A stretch of 64,000 bases of DNA from an uncultured Candidatus Saccharibacteria bacterium (GTDB taxonomy: Bacteria; Patescibacteriota; Minisyncoccia; Phycocordibacterales; DATDWN01). The stretch is taken from positions 12,435 through 76,434 of the forward strand of contig CAYMJQ010000003.1 in the NCBI GenBank assembly GCA_964391455.1, given 5' to 3'. The notes beneath the pieces were generated by a model, which ran no database searches, was not told the origin of the DNA, and was given only the letters and a program-made list of their open reading frames with translations. Position numbers and translations under genes: made by a program. Positions 6,329 through 40,547 of this stretch are shown one piece after another (position 1 is the stretch's first letter; the number at the start of each line of letters is the position of its first letter).

Positions 6329-7426
6329 CTACAAAAGTTTTAATATATCTTTTGTTGTAACTATAAGCATAAGCAACATAAGAAGAGCAAAACCGGTAAC
6401 ATTAGCCCACTTAACCACATTTGGATTTATCGGCCTTCTTATTATGGCTTCTATTAGTACAAACAGTAGTCTCCCTCCGTCTAGTGCTGGAAATGGAACC
6501 AAATTGATAACTGCTAAATTAATAGAAATTATTGCGGTTATAGAAAGTAGATATCTAAAACCTAATTCGTTTGCTTCTTTTACGATACTGGCAATACCAA
6601 CAGGTCCAGTTACTTGAGAAAAATCTGATCTTAAAGTAATAGTTTCAAATAAGAATTTTGATAATCCAACAGTCGTAGCTTTTAACAAATACCAAGTGGT
6701 TTTAGCTCCAGTTAAAAGTGAATCTATAGCTGAAAGTTTTAATGTCCCTATCCATTCCATAGATATACCTAACACCCTTCTTCCTGGAATTATATCCGTT
6801 GTTGGAGTTATGCTTACTTGCCTTTCAGTGCCATTCTCACTAGAAATTTTCAAAATCAAATCTTTAGATGTTGATTCTGAAATATATTTTTGAACAACTT
6901 CAGGATAAAGTTCTTTATCCAAAACCTCACTTCCTCCAGATATAGCAAGTATCGTCTCTCCTGGTTTTAGACCGGATTTAAAAGCTGGAGAGTCTGGCAA
7001 AACTTCAGTAATTATCAGTCTAGCATCATTAAAATCCCCCATAGTATTTGATGGTAAAACAGAAGTGGTGCCAAGAAAAAAACCTAGTGAAATAATCAAC
7101 CAAGCAAATATTAAATTAAAAGTAACTCCAGCTAGCAACACTAAAGCTTGTATCCATTTAGGTTTATAAACAAAACTTACTCCTTTGTTTTCTTCACTTA
7201 TTTCACCACTATGAGCATCTTCACCGAATATTTTTACAAAACCACCGAAAGGTATAACATTTAGTGTATAAAGAGTTCCCCCCCATTTTTTACTTAAAAT
7301 TTTAGGAGGAAATCCAATTGCGAACTCATCTACTCTTATCCCAGACTTTTTAGCAACAAGAAAATGACCTAACTCATGGACAAAAATCAACACCGCCAAA
7401 ATTATTAAAAATATTATTATACTCAA
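6329..7426 (-). CDS. rseP: RIP metalloprotease RseP (site-2 protease) with PDZ domain
   Basis: 365 aa with the HELGHFLVAKKSG HExxH motif in a TM helix, a PDZ-like middle domain and a C-terminal LDGG motif. Confidence 0.85.
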   Translation of the reverse strand: MSIIIFLIILAVLIFVHELGHFLVAKKSGIRVDEFAIGFPPKILSKKWGGTLYTLNVIPFGGFVKIFGEDAHSGEISEENKGVSFVYKPKWIQALVLLAGVTFNLIFAWLIISLGFFLGTTSVLPSNTMGDFNDARLIITEVLPDSPAFKSGLKPGETILAISGGSEVLDKELYPEVVQKYISESTSKDLILKISSENGTERQVSITPTTDIIPGRRVLGISMEWIGTLKLSAIDSLLTGAKTTWYLLKATTVGLSKFLFETITLRSDFSQVTGPVGIASIVKEANELGFRYLLSITAIISINLAVINLVPFPALDGGRLLFVLIEAIIRRPINPNVVKWANVTGFALLMLLMLIVTTKDILKLL

Positions 7427-13649: not shown

Positions 13650-14496
13650 AAATATAGATTTCGCTTACTTTGGAACATCAGAGTTCGCCGTATATGTAAT
13701 AGAAGAATTGAAATCAAAAAACTTGATACCTAAGTTAGTAATAACTACCGAAGACAAACCGAGTGGAAGAAAATTAAAACTATCCCCTTCACCAATGAAA
13801 GTATGGGCTGAAAATAATAATATAAAATACATACAACCAAAAACTCTTAAAGGAGAAGATTTTCAAGAGCAATTCAAAAAATACGATATAAACCTTTCAA
13901 TAGTGGCTTCTTATGGAAAAATAATTCCAAAAAATATAATAGAAATACCTGAATTCAAAACAATAAATGTCCACCCCTCTCTTCTACCTAAACTAAGAGG
14001 ACCTTCACCCATCCAAAATACAATACTTCAAGAAAATGAATCTGGAGTAACTATAATAAAAATTGATGAAGAAGTTGACCACGGACCGATACTCTTACAA
14101 AAAAAAGTGGAAAATATAGACTGGCCTCCTTACGCAGATGAACTTGAAAAAACTCTTGGGAAAATTGGCGGAGAAATGTTATTTGAAGTAATAGAAAAAT
14201 TAAAAAATGAAACCATTAAAGAGGTAGAACAAGACCACAAAAATGCAACCTTCACAAAAAAAATAGAGAAAGCTGATGCTGAATTAAATTTCAATGATGC
14301 ACCAGAAGTAAATTTAAGAAAAATAAGAGCTTATAATATATGGCCAAATGCTTATTACTTTGAAAATATAAAAGGTGTTAAAAAAAGAATAATAATAAAA
14401 AAAGCTCATATAGAAAATGGCGAGCTTATTCTAGAAAGAGTTGTCCCTGAAGGCAAAAAAGAAATGAATTACAAAGATTTTCTAAGAGGTGTCTAA
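13639..14496 (+). CDS. fmt: methionyl-tRNA formyltransferase
   Basis: 285 aa with formyl-transferase N and C domains (NVHPSLLPKLRGPSPIQ). It overlaps the def stop in the classic def-fmt pair. Confidence 0.85.
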   Translation: MKNKNIDFAYFGTSEFAVYVIEELKSKNLIPKLVITTEDKPSGRKLKLSPSPMKVWAENNNIKYIQPKTLKGEDFQEQFKKYDINLSIVASYGKIIPKNIIEIPEFKTINVHPSLLPKLRGPSPIQNTILQENESGVTIIKIDEEVDHGPILLQKKVENIDWPPYADELEKTLGKIGGEMLFEVIEKLKNETIKEVEQDHKNATFTKKIEKADAELNFNDAPEVNLRKIRAYNIWPNAYYFENIKGVKKRIIIKKAHIENGELILERVVPEGKKEMNYKDFLRGV

Positions 14497-14663
14497 TCAT
14501 ACGAACCAGAATTGTAGATTGAAATTGAATCTACATACATTGATTTTTCTTGGGCTTTTACCATAACATGTAAAAGCAATATAATGATAAAAATACACCC
14601 AAAGACAAAACCTGTCATAAACCAATTAGCTTTTTGTTTGAAACTTCCTATCTGGATCATAAA

Positions 14664-15035
14664 TTAATTTCTAAAATCTACTCTCTTCAATAAATCTTTT
14701 ATCTTTGAAGCGCCTCTTCTAAACAAAGTGTCTTTTTTACTTTTTTTTGATACCAACTGTCTTTCTATATCATCTTTTACAATATCTATTGCAGCGTACA
14801 GATCAGACTGTTCAGAAACGGCATATACTTGAGGTGAACCGGAGATAGACATATTGACCTCCGCTTTAAATATATCACCAGAATTATGATGTTTAGTAGT
14901 CCTACCTATTTCAACTTCACATAAAACCTCCCCGTCTACTCCTGTAAATTTCTCTAAAGAAGACAGTTTTTTATTAACGTACTCACTTATAGCATCTGTT
15001 AAATCAAAATTTACTGATCTTATTTTTATATTCAT
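14664..15035 (-). CDS. hpf: ribosome hibernation promoting factor / RaiA family
   Basis: 123 aa starting MNIKIRSVNFDLTDAISEYVNKKL... Confidence 0.85.
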   Translation of the reverse strand: MNIKIRSVNFDLTDAISEYVNKKLSSLEKFTGVDGEVLCEVEIGRTTKHHNSGDIFKAEVNMSISGSPQVYAVSEQSDLYAAIDIVKDDIERQLVSKKSKKDTLFRRGASKIKDLLKRVDFRN

Positions 15036-15112
15036 ACCTTAATTATATAACTAAAAAATACTTTTTGAAAAGACCCCAAAATAGGGTTTATAAACAAAAA
15101 GTACTATACAAA

Positions 15113-15616
15113 TTAATCTAGAATGGATACCTCTTTTATGTTGGATTTTAGAATTTTTGAAGAATATTCAGCATCAGATGGTCTATCAAACAAAAAATCT
15201 CCCTCAAACAACTTTCCACTCAAAAGAAATGGAAACCAATATTCATCATCAGGCCACATTTGTGTAAAAGGTACTACACTCATTAAAAACCATTTCGGTT
15301 TCATTTCTTCAGTCTCAACTGGCTCCCGTAAAAAATCTAATAATTTAAAAACATGAACTTCTAGAACTTTATCATCATTTTCAAAAGAAAATTCTAAAAT
15401 ACCTACCTTATTTAATTGACCGTCATTTATCCCCACTTCTTCTTTCAACTCCCTAAGTGCAGCTTGTTCTATAGTTTCTCCTTCTTCCACCTTGCCCCCA
15501 AAACCATTCCATCTACCCGAGCCGAATCCCCTCTTTTTCATACCAAGCAGAATTTTATCACCTTTAATTGGAAAACATAAAGTCAATATTTTTTTCATAA
15601 AAAAATTGTAACACAA
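15113..15616 (-). CDS. NUDIX hydrolase
   Basis: Carries a NUDIX box GGKVEEGETIEQAALRELKEEVG. The true start may be the internal MKKILTL. Confidence 0.8.
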   Translation of the reverse strand: MCYNFFMKKILTLCFPIKGDKILLGMKKRGFGSGRWNGFGGKVEEGETIEQAALRELKEEVGINDGQLNKVGILEFSFENDDKVLEVHVFKLLDFLREPVETEEMKPKWFLMSVVPFTQMWPDDEYWFPFLLSGKLFEGDFLFDRPSDAEYSSKILKSNIKEVSILD

Positions 15617-15664
15617 ATAATTTAATCCAAGGGTAATATTGGGTTGTAATATATATACAGAAAC

Positions 15665-15700
15665 CGCCCGAAAGCTCGACGGCTCTGCGGGCGGCTTTTA
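15665..15700 (-). terminator. GC-rich hairpin terminator at left edge of tRNA-Asn island
   Basis: ccgcccg / cgggcgg form a 7-bp stem with a 16-nt loop, immediately after the stop of the 15714-16109 ORF. Confidence 0.5.
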
Positions 15701-15713
15701 CTGGTTACCTCTT

Positions 15714-16109
15714 TCAGTCCATTTCCAAATAGTCTGGTAGTGACCTACTATAGATTTCATAAGTAAGTTTAGTACCATCGCCATTGAGGACAATAAAGCA
15801 GACCCAATCGTAGTCCATCTTGCCTATTTCTTCAGCGAGATCACTGAGTCCACCATTACCCCAGAATTCAGGAACTCTAGTGCTTTCCTTCGTCTCTTCA
15901 GTCCACAAACAGAGACGTCTGTCTGTGTTTGTTGCAGTGTCAATGATATATCCCCCATTGAATTCAGTTGCGATAAGACGTCTCGCAAAAGAATGTTCAA
16001 GTTTTGGCTCAAATACAACAATAGCTTTTGCTTTTTGCGAAGAACTTGTTACTCCTGGGTCATCTACAAGTTTTTCTATGTTTACTGAACCAGTTTCAAT
16101 CCAGTACAT
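15714..16109 (-). CDS. hypothetical 131-aa protein (island gene F); weak resemblance to SUKH/Smi1-type immunity-like proteins
   Basis: Starts MYWIETGS... with GGAAGGAG 5 nt upstream. A TTGACA-17-TAATTT promoter lies at 16131-16159. The gene is GC-rich and carries EFWGNGG and LPDYLEM motifs. Confidence 0.5.
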   Translation of the reverse strand: MYWIETGSVNIEKLVDDPGVTSSSQKAKAIVVFEPKLEHSFARRLIATEFNGGYIIDTATNTDRRLCLWTEETKESTRVPEFWGNGGLSDLAEEIGKMDYDWVCFIVLNGDGTKLTYEIYSRSLPDYLEMD

Positions 16110-16130
16110 TTTAACTCCTTCCTGATGCAA

Positions 16131-16159
16131 AAATTAACATTAGAATTAATGTGTGTCAA
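16131..16159 (-). promoter_or_regulatory. promoter of island gene F (TTGACA-17-TAATTT), paralogous to the gene E promoter
   Basis: The minus-strand read is ATTGACACACATTAATTCTAATGTTAATTTTTG. It aligns with ATTGACACGCATTTATTTGTGTGTTAATTTTG upstream of gene E. Confidence 0.5.
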
Positions 16160-16172
16160 TTCACAACGCTCA

Positions 16173-16199
16173 TTGGACAAGTTCAGAACTCTGAATTGG
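16173..16199. repeat. 27-bp palindromic element copy 2 (ttggacaagttcagaactctgaattgg)
   Basis: Inverted-repeat arms TTCAGA/TCTGAA flanked by CCAA/TTGG, lying 13 nt upstream of the gene F -35. A near-identical copy is at 16751-16777. Confidence 0.6.
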
Positions 16200-16249
16200 A
16201 GAAAAACTGAGATAGAGTTTGAAATGATAATGTTTGGTTTTGTGTATAA

Positions 16250-16276
16250 CGAAAGCCGCTCTACAAGAGAGCGGCC
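16250..16276 (-). terminator. terminator after island gene E
   Basis: Minus-strand GGCCGCTCTCTTGTAGAGCGGC + TTTCGTT. Confidence 0.5.
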
Positions 16277-16539
16277 AAGATGTGGGCCTTTTTGTCATCA
16301 AATTCATTGAGTGGAACAATTGAGATTGTGTTCAGCCCAATACGAAGTTCAGAGAAGTCAGTAACCTGTTGTCCGATTTTGTGTATCGGAATTCCAGCTG
16401 TTACGAGTTTCTGTACAACGGCCTGTTGAGCTTCTTTTCTGTTCTCTGATTCGACCAATCCAAGCGAGTATGAGCCTCGTCCTGGGTTTTCAATGCTCAC
16501 AATGAAATGCATTTTTACCTCCAAAAACAAAATTAACAC
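16261..16539 (-). CDS. hypothetical 92-aa protein (island gene E)
   Basis: GGAGG lies 7 nt before the ATG. A TTGACA promoter at 16530-16558 sits 5 nt from att repeat A1. The gene is GC-rich. Confidence 0.5.
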   Translation of the reverse strand: MLILFLEVKMHFIVSIENPGRGSYSLGLVESENRKEAQQAVVQKLVTAGIPIHKIGQQVTDFSELRIGLNTISIVPLNEFDDKKAHILAALL

Positions 16540-16563
16540 ACAAATAAATGCGTGTCAATAAAG

Positions 16564-16579
16564 TGCTCCGGCGGTAGGG
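16564..16579. repeat. direct repeat A1: partial copy of tRNA-Asn 3' end (tgctccggcggtaggg)
   Basis: A 16/16 match to plus-strand 17492-17507 (the tRNA acceptor/T-arm 3' portion). Confidence 0.7.
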
Positions 16580-16712
16580 TGATCTTTTTTAATTTTAAAT
16601 TTTCGTCAAAATTTAAAATTAAAAACGCAGTTTGTCGACAAGCCGTACTCGGCTCGTAAACCGACAAACTGTTCGATCCCTACACGAAAACTTTCAGTTT
16701 TCTCGCCGATAG

Positions 16713-16740
16713 TAAAAAAGACCCTTACGGGTCTTTCTTT
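16713..16740. terminator. bidirectional hairpin terminator (aaaaaagaccc ttac gggtctttcttt)
   Basis: Stem agaccc/gggtct with an A-run on the 5' side and a T-run on the 3' side. Confidence 0.5.
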
Positions 16741-16750
16741 GCTCCGCAAG

Positions 16751-16777
16751 TTGGACGCATTCAGAACTCTGAATTGG
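16751..16777. repeat. 27-bp palindromic element copy 1 (ttggacgcattcagaactctgaattgg)
   Basis: Differs from copy 2 only at 3 central-left positions. Confidence 0.6.
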
Positions 16778-16914
16778 GTTGCTATTAAAAGAGAATTAGA
16801 ACTTTCGGGGATTTTAGGTATATCTTATTTTCAAACTGCTTCAGAACTAGTGTAAAAACAGAATCGCCCAACGAGGTCGGGCGACCTGTTGAGCGATGAT
16901 AGAGAAACGGGAAG

Positions 16915-17265
16915 TTACTTCTTTGCACGGGACGTTCTGGAACGAAAGGACAGTTCTTCCTTGCTGAACTGGATGTGATGGGTGTTTTCAATGATAGTCC
17001 TGCGTTTCGCACCCTTGTCGACATTCCACTGTCGCAATCCTTTGCGACGCCCAACACGAAGCCCTTTGGTTTTCTCGTCGCAATATTTCATCACACACTT
17101 CGCGACGTGTTTTGGAAGTGTGTGCAAACAACTTCCATCACAAGGACCGATGACAATGTGCTCATCTGCCATTCGGTTTACGTAGTTGTAGTGGGAAACG
17201 TGGATTTCACCATTGATACAGAACTGGTCTCCCCATTCTTCACGACTAATCAGAGTTGCTTTCAC
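16915..17265 (-). CDS. hypothetical 116-aa Cys/His-rich protein (island gene G), a possible zinc-finger or HNH-like nuclease fold
   Basis: GTG start with GGGAGG 5 nt upstream. A TTGACT-17-TATTAT promoter at 17294-17322 lies 2 nt from att repeat A2. The protein carries C16, HVSHYN, GPCDGSCLH, KHVAKC, KYC and NTHHI clusters and a basic C-terminal tail. Confidence 0.5.
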   Translation of the reverse strand: MKATLISREEWGDQFCINGEIHVSHYNYVNRMADEHIVIGPCDGSCLHTLPKHVAKCVMKYCDEKTKGLRVGRRKGLRQWNVDKGAKRRTIIENTHHIQFSKEELSFRSRTSRAKK

Positions 17266-17293
17266 TAAACACCTCCCTTCAAATCTAAATTAG

Positions 17294-17322
17294 ATAATAA
17301 CACGACTTATAAAATAAGTCAA
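17294..17322 (-). promoter_or_regulatory. promoter of island gene G (TTGACT-17-TATTAT)
   Basis: The minus-strand read is TTGACTtattttataagtcgtgtTATTAT. Confidence 0.5.
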
Positions 17323-17324
17323 AC

Positions 17325-17347
17325 TTGCTCCGGCGGTAGGGATCGAA
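17325..17347. repeat. direct repeat A2: 23-nt copy of tRNA-Asn 3' end (ttgctccggcggtagggatcgaa)
   Basis: A 23/23 match to 17491-17513. Confidence 0.75.
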
Positions 17348-17493
17348 ACTTACAGTTTCAGTACACCTGTTCTGTTTTTTATTTCTAATTGAATAAAAAA
17401 CTATCACAGGTCTTCGATCCCTAACGTAAAAGTCTCCCAGACTTTTACTCCGTCCTTCGCAAATGAAAAATCCCCTTTCGGGGTTTTCATTTG

Positions 17494-17565
17494 CTCCGGC
17501 GGTAGGGATCGAACCTACGACCAATCGATTAACAGTCGATTGCTCTACCACTGAGCTACACCGGA
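17494..17565 (-). tRNA. tRNA-Asn (anticodon GTT)
   Basis: The minus-strand read is TCCGGTGTAGCTCAGTGGTAGAGCAATCGACTGTTAATCGATTGGTCGTAGGTTCGATCCCTACCGCCGGAG. It has a 7-bp acceptor stem, a D-arm AGCTCAGTGGTAGAGC, an anticodon loop CUGUUAA and a T-arm GTAGGTTCGATCCCTAC. CCA is not encoded. Confidence 0.85.
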
Positions 17566-17745
17566 ATGTTTAAGCTCAGGACCACTGGCCACAAGTTAAA
17601 ATCTGCTGATTTTACTCGCGACCCCTCCTCGCCCCCGTCTCGGGCTCCGGCCTTGCGAAGTAAAAACATCACTTCTCACTACACCGGAATAAATAGATAA
17701 TACCAAAAATATAGAGGAAAGCAACAATTTTATACTTACTCTGTA

Positions 17746-18150
17746 CTATTGATTATAGGAATCTCTTAACCACATTCTCATATCCCCTATCTCTTTATTT
17801 TGAGTCAAAATAATAGCTTCTGCCAAATCCTTTATCTCTTGCATTTTTGCATTAGTTAGAGCAAGTTTAGCCATTTCAACAGCACCCTCATGATGAATAA
17901 TCATTTCTTGTAAGAATGCTACGTCAAATTCATCTCCTGTTTTACCCTTAAGTTGAGCATTCATACTTATCATCATATCTTCCATACTCATCATATTCAT
18001 ATCTCCCATAAGACTTCCGTCAGGCATTACATGCATACCTGAAGGAACATTGGTCTTAACATCTGTGGTTTTAGAACCTCCAAACCAGTATCCTCCCAAA
18101 AAAGACACTAAAATTAAAACTACAATTAAAGAAATATTATTTTTTTCCAT
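17746..18150 (-). CDS. DUF305-family (ferritin-like) protein with N-terminal TM segment
   Basis: Carries the FDVAFLQEMIIHHEGAVEMA motif typical of DUF305. Confidence 0.65.
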   Translation of the reverse strand: MEKNNISLIVVLILVSFLGGYWFGGSKTTDVKTNVPSGMHVMPDGSLMGDMNMMSMEDMMISMNAQLKGKTGDEFDVAFLQEMIIHHEGAVEMAKLALTNAKMQEIKDLAEAIILTQNKEIGDMRMWLRDSYNQ

Positions 18151-18198
18151 ATAAATATACTATAATATACTTCCTAAAAAGCAATATATAAATACATT

Positions 18199-18618
18199 AT
18201 GCTGAACAAAAAATATAATGTAAAAAACCTTAAATTAAGAGTTAAAAGATCCAAAACTGGAAAAGGTCTTTTTACATTAGAAAATATCCCTAAAGGTACT
18301 TGTATTATTGAGTATATCGGAGTTGTAGTTCCGGAGGAAAAACTAGATACAATAAATTCAAGATATCTTTTTGAGGTCGGTAAAAAAACAACAATAAACG
18401 GCAACATACCTAAAAATATAGCCCGTTATATAAATCACTCTTGTCGTCCAAACTGTGAAGCAGATGGACCTGAAGGAAGGGTTTTTATAACTGCAATAAA
18501 AAATATAAAAGCTGGAGAAGAACTGTTTTATGATTATGGAGAAGAATATTTTGAAGAATACCTAAGTAATGGCAGATGTTTGTGTGAAAAATGTAAAAAG
18601 ACAAAATCCAAAAAATAA
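18199..18618 (+). CDS. SET-domain protein (putative protein-lysine methyltransferase)
   Basis: Carries NHSCRPNC and ELFYDYG SET motifs and a post-SET Cys cluster CLCEKC. Confidence 0.8.
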   Translation: MLNKKYNVKNLKLRVKRSKTGKGLFTLENIPKGTCIIEYIGVVVPEEKLDTINSRYLFEVGKKTTINGNIPKNIARYINHSCRPNCEADGPEGRVFITAIKNIKAGEELFYDYGEEYFEEYLSNGRCLCEKCKKTKSKK

Positions 18619-18632
18619 TTTATTATAAGTAA

Positions 18633-19412
18633 ATGGATCTAAATCTTTTTGCAATATCTATAGTAGAGGGTATAACTGAATTCCTCCCGATATCTTCCAC
18701 CGCACACCTGATAATACTTGGCAAAATTCTATCTGTAGATTTATCAGATCCATATATCAAATTTTACTTACTAGCAATACAATTCGGAGCTCTTTTGGCT
18801 GGAATATTCCTCTTCACAAAAAAAATAATTCTTAACAAAAAATTATTTGTTAACATAGTAGTAAGCTTCATTCCAAGTGCAGTTGCTGGTTTTATCTTAT
18901 ACCAGACTTTCAAGCAATTATTGGAAGGAAATATTATTCTTCTATCCTCAATGCTTTTAATAGGAGGAATAATTCTGGTATATATTGAACGATTTGTTAT
19001 AAAAAACTTAAATGATTCTGAATTCGGAAAAGAAGATATGACTAAAACTGATGCTTTGATTGTGGGAATGGCCCAAGCAATAGCCATAATACCCGGGGTT
19101 TCAAGATCTGGAGCAACCATCGTATCTGGCATATTAAGAGGTATAAAGAAATCAACAATAATTGAATACACTTTCCTTCTGGCAATACCGACATTGGGAA
19201 GTGCTGTAGCGTACGACACCTATAAATCTCGTGAAATGTTTTTTGCTCTAGAGAATTACTCTGCCCTGTTTCTTGGAATTTTTATATCTTTTTTAACTGC
19301 TTTAATAACTCTATACGTAATCAGAAAACATATTAGAAAAATATCCCTCTCCGCTTTCGGAATATATAGAATAATCCTATCTTTAATTATATTTTTCGTT
19401 TATCTTTTCTAA
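18633..19412 (+). CDS. uppP: undecaprenyl-diphosphatase
   Basis: The BacA/UppP N-terminus EGITEFLPISSTAHL with a polytopic membrane profile. Confidence 0.85.
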   Translation: MDLNLFAISIVEGITEFLPISSTAHLIILGKILSVDLSDPYIKFYLLAIQFGALLAGIFLFTKKIILNKKLFVNIVVSFIPSAVAGFILYQTFKQLLEGNIILLSSMLLIGGIILVYIERFVIKNLNDSEFGKEDMTKTDALIVGMAQAIAIIPGVSRSGATIVSGILRGIKKSTIIEYTFLLAIPTLGSAVAYDTYKSREMFFALENYSALFLGIFISFLTALITLYVIRKHIRKISLSAFGIYRIILSLIIFFVYLF

Positions 19413-39645: not shown

Positions 39646-39690
39646 TTTGGATAATAAAAAATCCCGGTTCTCGACTGTTGCCGAAAACCG
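39646..39690 (-). terminator. terminator of GC-rich gene (tcccggtt / aaccggga + T-run)
   Basis: An 8-bp stem; the minus-strand read is followed by TTTTTTATTAT. Confidence 0.6.
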
Positions 39691-39726
39691 GGACCTGTGC
39701 TGGGAAGCAAATACAAGAAGATCAAA

Positions 39727-40383
39727 TCAGATCGCTGAGGCGAATTCCTCCGCAGCCGCTCTCACCTCGTCGGCGATCCGCGTATCTTTCTCAGCCTGTT
39801 CGCGACGCCTCTCTTCTGGCGTCTTTTCAACGAGAAGCTCGACTCTCGCCTTCTGCTTCTTGGAAGCCTTGCCGAGCCTGGCAAGCATGCGGGCATTGGC
39901 ATCCCGCGCCTCCTGAAGTCTGGGAGCTTCCTCGATAGAATCGAGAAGATCCCAGTAGAGACGGCTGAGTTCGTTGAGATCGAACTCGTCGAGCAGCCGA
40001 GTGCTCTCAACCGCCTCCTTGAAGAGATTGAATTTCTTCATGAGGCCGTCATAGATGTCCTGGTCCACGAGCTGGGCCACCATGCGGAGCTTGTTCGGGA
40101 AAAAGTTCTCCACCGAGCGAATGGCGTAGAACTTTTGACTGTTCCGGAGTGAACGAAGTGCCTTCACTGCGCCATTGAAGGCAAACAGGAAGGACATCAC
40201 CCCGAACGCCCGGACTGAATCGAGGTAAAGTATCTTGATCTCATCCTTTACCTTGAAATTCATGAATCGGGCTCGAGTCTTGCCACTGTCACCAGTGGCA
40301 ATCTTTACCTCTGCTAGGAAGGCACGGAAAACACCCTCCACCTCCTGCCGAGTCGGGATCTTCTTCACCTTCTTCTTGTCCAT
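39727..40383 (-). CDS. hypothetical 218-aa protein encoded by a strongly GC-rich gene with its own consensus promoter and terminator
   Basis: Starts MDKKKVKKIPTRQ... with GGGAGG 5 nt upstream. The C-terminal half is an E/R/A-rich coiled coil. Codon usage is unlike its neighbours. Confidence 0.55.
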   Translation of the reverse strand: MDKKKVKKIPTRQEVEGVFRAFLAEVKIATGDSGKTRARFMNFKVKDEIKILYLDSVRAFGVMSFLFAFNGAVKALRSLRNSQKFYAIRSVENFFPNKLRMVAQLVDQDIYDGLMKKFNLFKEAVESTRLLDEFDLNELSRLYWDLLDSIEEAPRLQEARDANARMLARLGKASKKQKARVELLVEKTPEERRREQAEKDTRIADEVRAAAEEFASAI

Positions 40384-40427
40384 TGTCGCCTCCCAGCAAT
40401 ACGCCACGAAATGTGACTAAATTGCTC

Positions 40428-40463
40428 TGTTTTGATACTAGCATATTTATCACTATTTGTCAA
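40428..40463 (-). promoter_or_regulatory. sigma70-consensus promoter TTGACA-17-TAGTAT for the GC-rich gene
   Basis: The minus-strand read is TTGACAaatagtgataaatatgcTAGTAT. The spacer 3' end plus the -10 (ATATGCTAGTAT) nearly matches the 54174 promoter (ATATGCTACTAT). Confidence 0.55.
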
Positions 40464-40547
40464 ATAATTTTTTACTTTTTATATAAAAACCCTTATTTTA
40501 AGCCAAAAAATACATGGTGTCGGAACCGATGCACTAGTTTAGTTAAA

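Follow-up and report, generated by a model that had tools for sequence, protein, structure and literature searches.

A GC-rich island downstream of tRNA-Asn

The stretch of DNA analysed here, referred to as the window, comprises 64,000 nt of contig CAYMJQ010000003.1 from an uncultured Candidatus Saccharibacteria bacterium, and it carries on the minus strand a tRNA-Asn(GTT) gene (17494-17565) that is followed by a GC-rich island with repeated copies of the tRNA 3' end and three small genes, here called G, E and F. A preliminary description of this DNA had placed the tRNA at the same position, which is confirmed by ARAGORN and by Rfam (RF00005, 72.8 bits). The gene does not encode CCA; its 3' end reads ...CCGGAG and is followed by CAAA. 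The direct repeats of this end were also described correctly: the copy at 17325-17347 matches the tRNA at 23 of 23 positions, and the 16-mer CCCTACCGCCGGAGCA from the tRNA 3' end occurs three times (16564-16579, 17326-17341 and 17492-17507; expected number 0.00), so that the repeats lie far above chance and match the 3' end of this very tRNA rather than being incidental similarities. Inverted fragments are likewise present, although the coordinates first given for them (17415 and 16668) were 2-4 nt off. The 11-mer TAGGGATCGAA is located at 16672-16682 and 17413-17423, with four matches in total including the tRNA and copy 2, where 0.02 are expected.

The island (15650-17492) has a GC content of 41.3%, compared with 33.1% in the rest of the window, and lies about 2.9 standard deviations above windows of the same size (mean 33.4%, standard deviation 2.8%). 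The GC content at third codon positions is 0.51 in G, 0.44 in E and 0.33 in F, as opposed to 0.22-0.27 in the flanking host genes, and these profiles bear out the earlier remark that the genes are GC-richer than the genome. Beyond the terminator of F, the island is adjoined by a NUDIX gene (15113-15598), the product of which is 73-74% identical to the NUDIX proteins of locus L003, from an uncultured metagenome-assembled genome, and of locus L004, from Minisyncoccus archaeiphilus. The window belongs to a low-GC (33%) Patescibacterium of the Paceibacteria type. Its positions 14098-17522 recur with 100% identity in a Logan contig from SRR15237806, and the window sequence is therefore a natural assembly.

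The tRNA-end copies close two folded modules

The copies of the tRNA 3' end and the inverted fragments are the paired arms of two structured modules of approximately 170-185 nt on the minus strand. Module 1 (17325-17493), the first base of which (17493) directly adjoins tRNA-Asn, is composed of a terminator-like hairpin, P0 (17461-17492), a hairpin hpA (17426-17448), a clamp that is complementary to the T-loop and T-stem (17413-17425), an inner compound hairpin (about 17349-17412) and the direct 23-nt copy of the tRNA end (17325-17347). Module 2 (16563-16746) contains P0 (16714-16739), the 5' strand of helix P1 (16704-16709), hpA (16686-16702), the clamp GTAGGGATCGAAC (16671-16683), hpB (16628-16671), hpC (16586-16625) and a 16-nt copy of the tRNA end (16564-16579). 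Read along the tRNA strand, a module begins with P0, a clamp strand complementary to the acceptor 3' strand and hpA, and continues with the complement of the T-stem 3' strand and T-loop, one or two hairpins (hpB/hpC) and a copy of the last 16-23 nt of the tRNA. Module 1 shares the fold layout of this consensus but has a single inner hairpin.

In both modules, GTAGGGATCGAA(C) is the exact complement of the tRNA T-loop plus the T-stem 3' strand. This clamp pairs with the tRNA-end copy, the inverted fragment and the copy being 65-93 nt apart, and the resulting closing helix reproduces the acceptor/T-arm minihelix of the cognate tRNA, with a short 3' tail left over. A covariance model built from six tRNA-Asn modules (R1, see below) scores module 1 with 42 bits (E-value about 3e-8 to 3e-9; fold z = -8.1) and module 2 with 189 bits, and the minimum-energy fold of module 2 is the consensus structure (z = -9.06), which is further supported by covariation. 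Module 2 and the module of metagenome contig L083 are displaced copies, in which of the upstream tRNA context only GGAGC(A/C)AAA has been kept.

Conservation and covariation of the modules

The tRNA-Asn module is also found in four other metagenome contigs. A metagenome scan for the pattern of an inverted fragment, 65-95 nt and a tRNA end yielded three further contigs (L085, L086 and L087). The order of genes is fmt, HPF, tRNA-Asn, module and terminator in L086, and HPF, tRNA-Asn, module, promoter and gene in L087, while L085 harbours a tandem pair of modules followed by two promoter-led genes. The six tRNA-Asn modules from five contigs have a mean column identity of 83% and a single consensus fold, in which 33 of the 69 base pairs are compensated (MAFFT/RNAalifold alignment). 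When modules of other tRNAs were added to give an alignment of 11 members, 93.2% of the cells could pair, 65 of the 69 pairs showed double changes, and the covariation score was 0.68, compared with about 0.12 with slid partners and 0.20 after shuffling. As the 11-member alignment was fitted to the covariance model, these values are flattering, a bias from which the six-module result is free. The latter alignment also contains 18 GU/UG cells as against 3 AC/CA cells, which identifies the tRNA-sense strand as the folded one and thereby rules out antisense transcripts and duplex protein-binding palindromes.

The pairing of hpA, hpB and hpC is kept through many double substitutions across genomes and tRNA types, and the inner hairpins carry conserved loops (GACGA and AGTA) and a GTYT bulge. 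Indeed, hpA (GAG...CGT), hpB and hpC (loop GACGA) stay recognisably homologous in modules of different tRNAs. Furthermore, the E homologue in L083 and L084 has in front of it the non-coding stretch of approximately 330 nt that also precedes E in the window; this stretch is 81% identical overall, about as conserved as the coding region, and retains all hairpins through compensatory changes. Taken as comparative sequence data, this indicates that the structure of the modules is under selection, and it is the architecture itself, a multi-hairpin fold closed by the clamp and the tRNA-end copy, that appears to be selected.

One scaffold at many tRNAs

The search with R1 covered loci that had been chosen solely because they encode a relative of the NUDIX protein. 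In addition to module 1 of the window, it found modules directly 3' of all three tRNAs of L082 (tRNA-Ser, tRNA-Arg and tRNA-Lys), behind the tRNA-Ala(CGC) gene of L022 and right at the beginning of the closest relative, L003. More modules were recognised by eye after tRNA-Ala(TGC) in L022 and after tRNA-Thr and tRNA-Ile in L034. The position directly 3' of the tRNA, as in the window, is shared by L086, L087, L082 (three modules), L022 and L034. Each clamp, located at +55 to +73, is exactly complementary over 9-13 nt to the T region of its own tRNA and usually covers the acceptor strand too; the 3' end of each module is a 10-23-nt copy of the 3' end of its own tRNA, at +122 to +197. In a scan of the flanks of 61 tRNAs (those of the 63 found in the loci studied that had sufficient sequence on either side), such clamp/copy matches were present downstream of 16, two of which were the E. 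coli control, and the same scan of the upstream side gave two matches that are weak or trivially explained.

Several tRNAs are followed by a module free of cargo (three times in L082, and in L086 and L022), and the order tRNA, terminator, module, terminator is seen in L086, L082 and L022. At two tRNAs, L082-Lys and L022-Ala(TGC), P0, the clamp and the tRNA acceptor 3' strand together make up a long, almost perfect palindrome, and the 3' copy of L082-Lys is degenerate. These palindromes hint, as far as sequence can tell, at template switching around the terminator, although this by itself would leave the shared hairpins unaccounted for. Locus L044 (6690-6900) has tRNA-linked repeats of another kind: its tRNA-Tyr is followed by two tandem repeats of 103 nt, each with the tRNA 3' half from the anticodon loop on.

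The cargo genes and their signals

As previously described, the island encodes three small genes on the same strand, each with a TTGAC(A/T)-17 promoter, a GGAGG-type ribosome-binding site and a hairpin terminator; the promoter of G and the terminators of G and E were detected by the promoter/terminator scan and the other signals were read from the sequence. The promoters of E and F have a TGn extended -10 element and fall below the threshold of the scan for the second hexamer. Gene G (16915-17265) has a promoter at 17294-17322 (TTGACT, 17 nt, TATTAT, with TG; 10 of 12 matches) that starts 3 nt past the copy in module 1, a GTG start codon after GGGAGG, and a terminator at 16862-16886 (11-bp stem and T run), and encodes an ORFan protein of 116 aa that is rich in Cys, His, Lys and Arg (47% GC). 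The promoter of gene E (16530-16558; TTGACA, 17 nt, TAATTT, TGT before the -10), which begins 5 nt past the copy in module 2, is conserved in L083, as is the terminator that overlaps the E stop codon (16254-16276). Gene E itself (16261-16512, 44% GC) follows a GGAGG ribosome-binding site and encodes 83 aa from its ATG; the length of 92 aa assigned to it earlier counts from an upstream GTG. Gene F (15714-16109; 131 aa, AGGAG ribosome-binding site, 40% GC) has a promoter of the same composition (16131-16159; TTGACA, 17 nt, TAATTT, TGT before the -10) and ends at the terminator GCCGCCCG...CGGGCGG with a T-rich tail (15655-15699), where the GC-rich island ends. Over 31 nt, the promoters of E (16529-16559) and F (16130-16160) share 81% identity. 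A promoter within 2-5 nt of a repeat copy, which had been claimed for all three genes, is found for G and E but not for F, the promoter of which lies 13 nt past a 27-nt box.

E has homologues at 81% and 72% identity and a ratio of nonsynonymous to synonymous substitution rates (dN/dS) of 0.14 relative to L083, while F has one homologue in a different context (56% identity by BLASTP, 59% by MAFFT) with a dN/dS of 0.23 at saturated dS. Judging by these substitution patterns, E and F are real coding genes under purifying selection. None of the three proteins had a match in Pfam, PHROGs, PADLOC or NCBIfam, and the cargo open reading frames (ORFs) of L003, L085, L087 and L083/L084 had none in Pfam, the one library that they were run against. 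A PDB sequence search with F and a word-indexed homologue search with G likewise returned nothing, and the AlphaFold models of F (predicted local distance difference test, pLDDT, 56) and E (pLDDT 63) were too poor for a fold search. The exhaustive HMMER search with G gave matches to WD40 repeats alone, all of them weak (2.2e-9 to 8e-4); it is residues 41-99 that match individual blades of giant WD40-repeat proteins (E-value 2.2e-9 at best), with many hydrophobic core positions of the blade replaced by Lys, Arg or Cys. On this alignment, G may represent a captured and diverged gene fragment, namely one decayed or borrowed WD40 blade without functional assignment behind a strong promoter. Scans of viral contigs with F, the E alignment, the box pattern and the module pattern found nothing, and the sole match in BLAST searches of phages and plasmids was the tRNA itself.

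A comparable cassette was noticed elsewhere in the window, at approximately 39690-40470 on the minus strand, where a promoter (TTGACA-17-TAGTAT), GGGAGG, a 218-aa ORFan gene with 54.5% GC and a hairpin terminator lie between a sigma-70/RpoD-like ORF (assigned by eye) and a UvrD/PD-(D/E)XK helicase gene. The ORFan had no match in Pfam or NCBIfam, and there is no tRNA or module nearby; such cassettes therefore do not require one. The GC-rich stretch of 38.5-40.5 kb was considered as a possible rRNA, but it has no Rfam match and consists of this cassette and the somewhat GC-richer 5' end of the helicase gene.

Cargo turnover and repeats at the junctions

The cargo differs in every relative examined, and none has the same three genes at this position. 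The spacing between tRNA-Asn and NUDIX is 0.8 kb in L036, 1 kb in L008 and 5.8 kb in L005, with no relative in which the two abut, and the genes in between include a 153-aa ORF in L036 and a 216-aa ORF in L008 that was read by eye as a methyltransferase. In L003, the module is followed by a TTGACT promoter, two other ORFans and NUDIX. In L083/L084, the E cassette has other neighbours, being preceded by a partial ORF of 122 aa and followed by another promoter-led ORF, and the F homologue in L002 stands alone beside a pterin-4a dehydratase gene. The composition of the cargo shifts in different directions in different hosts. An island of foreign composition without a recombinase gene, as originally proposed, is thus an apt description, and the closest relatives carry different genes there, a sign of fast turnover.

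Short repeats are found at several junctions. GGAGCA flanks the G segment (17325 to 16746) on both sides (17326-17331 and 16740-16745), and removal of the segment would, on sequence grounds, make modules 1 and 2 a tandem pair like that of L085. The junction of module 2 with E is common to L083 and is therefore not a local joint between host and element. Upstream of module 2 lies a promoter-like site (TTTACA, 18 nt, GAAAAT; 16827-16856, minus strand) that contains GTTCTGAAG and has homologous counterparts in the native flank of tRNA-Asn in L036 and at the distal end of the L086 island. At this site the homology with L083 sets in, and L083 shares the stretch from GTTCTGAAG to the box. The 27-nt box has two matches where none is expected: copy 2 (CCAATTCAGAGTTCTGAATGCGTCCAA, 16751-16777, minus strand) precedes GGAGCAAA and P0 of module 2 by 5 nt, and copy 1 (CCAATTCAGAGTTCTGAACTTGTCCAA, 16173-16199, minus strand) lies 13 nt upstream of the F promoter -35. 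L083 has a copy at 452-478, in the same position as copy 2. The box, CCAATTCAGAGTTCTGAAnnnGTCCAA, sits at the downstream ends of the G and E segments and could be an operator or a recombination site. It was also considered as a second tRNA 3' end, but no T-arm could be drawn and the palindrome is not kept in L083. The GTTCTGAAG motif, present in the promoter-like sites at 16827-16856, in L036 (about 7118-7150) and in L086 (about 270-300), is related to the box, and in L086 a second, inverted copy of the motif follows the first.

L086 also contains, at about 370-2500, an AT-shifted island of 2.3 kb (33% GC compared with 43% in the core genes). The tRNA-Asn module borders it on one side and a GAGCCA remnant on the other, and beyond the remnant comes the flank native to L036. 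The ORFs of the island were read by eye as CcdA-like, thioredoxin-like, membrane and XRE-type. In L085, two cargo promoters (374-410 and 945-980) constitute a near-perfect repeat of 33 nt, and the repeat sequences suggest that cassettes may be added by recombination within, or duplication of, the promoter.

Relation to E. coli tRNA-linked repeats and other systems

The closest likeness of the modules is to the tRNA-linked repeats (TLRs) of E. coli, known from Egan and Landy (1978), Rudd (1999) and Stenum et al. (2021; PMC8144298). [quoted passage not shown] Those of tRNA operons are still without an assigned function, while those of rrnA, rrnB and rrnD lie between the terminators T1 and T2 and are made by read-through of T1 and processed, with the repeat as the proposed processing determinant (PMC8144298). 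The resulting rrA, rrB and rrF RNAs bind Hfq and CsrA via GGA motifs. Co-transcription with the operon and processing to a discrete RNA have been shown for RtT as well as for rrA, rrB and rrF, and P0 stands before the module body much as T1 does before rrB. At E. coli tyrT/tyrV, the complement GGGGAAGGAT is found at +57, followed by inner hairpins and a 19-22-nt copy of the tRNA end at about +157, in tandem units of 178 bp, and the consensus of the Rfam family RtT (RF00391; gene rttR) closes with a helix between the complement and the tRNA-end copy. The modules share with these units the location directly 3' of the tRNA, the repeated end of TLR type (23 nt and 16 nt, compared with 18-19 bp), a complement some 60 nt past the tRNA and a copy at some 160 nt, a multi-hairpin fold closed by both, a unit size of about 180 nt and the possibility of tandem arrangement. 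The closing helix, the inner hairpins and the free 3' tail of RtT are also part of the consensus structures of the modules.

Several features set the Patescibacterial modules apart from RtT. They start with a terminator hairpin, their clamp covers the acceptor strand too and is split by hpA, one homologous scaffold serves at least eight tRNA species in several genomes, and about half of them are directly followed by a promoter-led ORFan. A similar order of stable-RNA gene, first terminator, unit ending in a copy of the gene end and second terminator is shared by rrA/rrB/rrF and the loci L086, L082 and L022, yet in the former the upstream gene is 5S rRNA, no GGA motif pattern is evident in the modules, and the window has a promoter in place of the second terminator.

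Other known systems show partial resemblance. Islands integrated at tRNAs by tyrosine recombinases share the direct repeats of the tRNA 3' end, the foreign composition and the variable content, but here there is no integrase, the repeats lie inside covarying modules with a complement, and modules without cargo exist. Integron attC sites and the attP hairpin of CTX-phi are recombination sites folded from a single strand. As in these sites, the structure of one strand is conserved over sequence, with an imperfect helix and a bulged base mimicking a duplex site, and small single-gene cassettes without a recombinase of their own are a further parallel to attC. Unlike in integrons, where an IntI integrase is accompanied by attI and a Pc promoter and each promoterless cassette ends in an attC hairpin (R''-L''...L'-R'), no link to IntI or Xer was found, the cassettes of the window have their own promoters and terminators, and the window module is multi-branched, precedes the gene and has a tRNA end as its target. 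G, E, F and the gene at 39.7-40.5 kb resemble phage morons in having each a promoter, a ribosome-binding site, a terminator and a deviant GC content, but they have neither a prophage context nor a PHROG match. Among other candidates, a tmRNA or permuted tRNA was dismissed since ARAGORN was negative, and the module did not match any Rfam family. IS110 bridge RNA, TnpB omega-RNA, retron and CAST homing RNA were discarded as there is no partner gene and the guide-like copy is base-paired. A paper on Gracilibacterium hypervariation in the library searched (PMC6851277) proved unrelated.

Function and origin of the modules

Given the covarying fold and its arms, we regard it as highly probable that the repeats are the arms of structured modules of the TLR type. 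These modules constitute a new Patescibacterial family of TLRs next to a cassette hotspot, TLRs having so far been described in E. coli alone. The further proposition, that the modules give rise to processed RNAs of the TLR type and that the cargo cassettes are separate units at a permissive hotspot, is on our analysis probable, if with considerable reservations. By analogy with E. coli rrB and RtT, we infer that the modules would be transcribed by read-through of P0 from the strong tRNA promoter, and that their tRNA-like end could be used by the tRNA/rRNA end-processing machinery to produce a stable RNA of about 130-150 nt. G, E and F are separate units of promoter, ribosome-binding site, ORFan and terminator, of foreign composition, which may have built up in the permissive region behind the modules. 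Recombination between tRNA ends (GGAGCA), the 27-nt box and the near-identical promoters might shuffle modules and cassettes, and judging from where they lie, the short repeats at the junctions are plausible substrates for this.

A number of observations weigh against this proposal. P0 resembles an efficient intrinsic terminator, so that module RNA may be scarce, and P0 itself was not flagged by the promoter/terminator scan, because its T run pairs with an upstream A run. The kinship with TLRs is one of architecture, and homology is not demonstrated, since there is no model match in either direction: RF00391 (gathering threshold 45 bits) gave no match at E <= 1 in the window (14500-19000), L082, L085, L086, L087 or L003, while four E. 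coli control units scored 133-138 bits, and the covariance model of the modules did not match E. coli RtT. A processing signal needs no sequence match to the cognate tRNA, yet both arms track it exactly. The homologous inner hairpins at different tRNAs imply spread by a copying mechanism, which the RNA model does not explain. Finally, a strong -35 hexamer lies 3-6 nt past the 3' copy in about half of the modules, with a different ORFan each time (seven modules: two in the window and those of L083, L085, L087, L003 and L034), and genome compaction may not fully account for this regularity.

The preliminary description had read the repeats as a ladder of att sites left by serial integration, in which small islands would have inserted one after another at the T-loop/3' end of tRNA-Asn, each leaving behind a displaced copy of that end, with the tyrosine integrase genes lost since. 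The site at the tRNA 3' end, the identity blocks that begin in the T-loop region, the GC-shifted cargo and the different cargo of the relatives are in line with this, as are the GGAGCA bracket of the G cassette and the end of the L086 island, where GAGCCA is followed by the flank native in L036. The T-loop region is reportedly a classic sublocation for integrases. However, no recombinase is present in the island of the window (no ORF of suitable size in 15650-17570) or in those of L003, L085, L086 and L087, and the copies lie inside covarying hairpin modules, each with a split complement of the tRNA end, neither of which is predicted for integration scars. In addition, modules follow tRNAs without cargo, the arms switch to match whichever tRNA lies upstream, and in the loci examined the cargo is always distal to the module and never between tRNA and module, the opposite of what is expected if the module were attP. 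Copy 3 (GATCA-CCCTAC...) recurs unchanged in L085 and L086 and almost unchanged in L083 and L087, and is therefore not a locally decayed copy. We thus abandon the att ladder as an explanation of the repeats and consider serial integration rather improbable. A neutral origin seems still somewhat less probable. Here, local duplication or template switching around the tRNA terminator hairpin would have produced by-products that are tolerated without function, as might be read from the palindrome of P0 and clamp with the acceptor 3' strand in L082-Lys and L022-Ala(TGC), the degenerate 3' copy in L082-Lys and the tandem units, which could be explained by unequal crossing-over. This is difficult to reconcile with the pairing and loops of hpA, hpB and hpC, which are kept through double substitutions and therefore point to purifying selection on structure.

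Alternatively, the module might act as single-stranded DNA, folding, for instance following uptake by transformation or during replication, so as to rebuild the duplex of the last 20 bp or so of the tRNA gene, at which a recombinase acting in trans would insert modules and promoter-ORFan cassettes. Such a role would account for selection on the structure of one strand, for arms that both match the target duplex at eight different tRNAs, for tandem arrays of modules (L085 and the window), for cassettes without their own recombinase and a -35 hexamer 3-6 nt past the core in seven modules, and for the strong terminator in front of the module body, beyond which one would expect little RNA; the E module and cassette in a non-tRNA context, bracketed by short GGAGC repeats, would fit as well. 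No recombinase candidate was identified, however, and there were no matches in viral contigs, phage records or plasmid records. The predicted order of tRNA, cargo, module and flank is seen for the G segment (copies 2-3) alone and is contradicted by the intact module-E junction common to L083. The E. coli counterparts are known as RNAs, and the G-T wobble counts fit DNA and RNA alike. We therefore view a folded DNA site as unlikely, albeit worth keeping in mind, and nearly the same, perhaps a shade less, applies to the broader notion that the modules are a new kind of miniature mobile element or folded-single-strand recombination site. If true, target-matched arms would be regenerated upon each move to a new tRNA, the modules would serve as a landing pad for ORFan cassettes without a cassette-borne integrase, and the E. 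coli TLRs, for which an explanation has been wanting since 1978, could be remnants of such a process. The suggestion of an undescribed small cassette system is possible, but does not provide the best explanation of the locus.

Processed TLR-type RNAs beside separate cassettes are the preferred reading. TLRs have been known in E. coli for more than 45 years, and within the paper library searched the term "tRNA-linked repeats" occurs in only two papers. An equivalent architecture in a very distant phylum with minimal genomes, at no fewer than eight tRNA species and with heavy covariation, provides a comparative data set for testing their function, and it poses the puzzle of how one scaffold comes to match about 20 nt of each new tRNA exactly, both as complement and as copy. 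For annotators, the lesson is that copies of a tRNA 3' end behind the gene need not be att scars of integrated elements. The space after the modules is a hotspot for the gain and swap of ORFan expression cassettes in symbiotic Patescibacteria.

The upstream flank of tRNA-Asn

A GC-rich structured element of 127 nt (17566-17692, minus strand; fold z = -4.7) is situated directly upstream of tRNA-Asn. It opens with a 12-nt copy of the tRNA 5' end (17681-17692), which pairs with GCCGGA to form an acceptor-like stem. Conservation of the element in L087 is about 85% and includes a compensated hairpin; there, the copy extends over 25 nt plus part of the anticodon arm. The element may be the equivalent of the modules on the 5' side, or else a duplicate of the tRNA that has decayed. 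Short copies of the 5' end of their own tRNA-Asn are also present in L008 and L005, 40-60 nt upstream of the gene.

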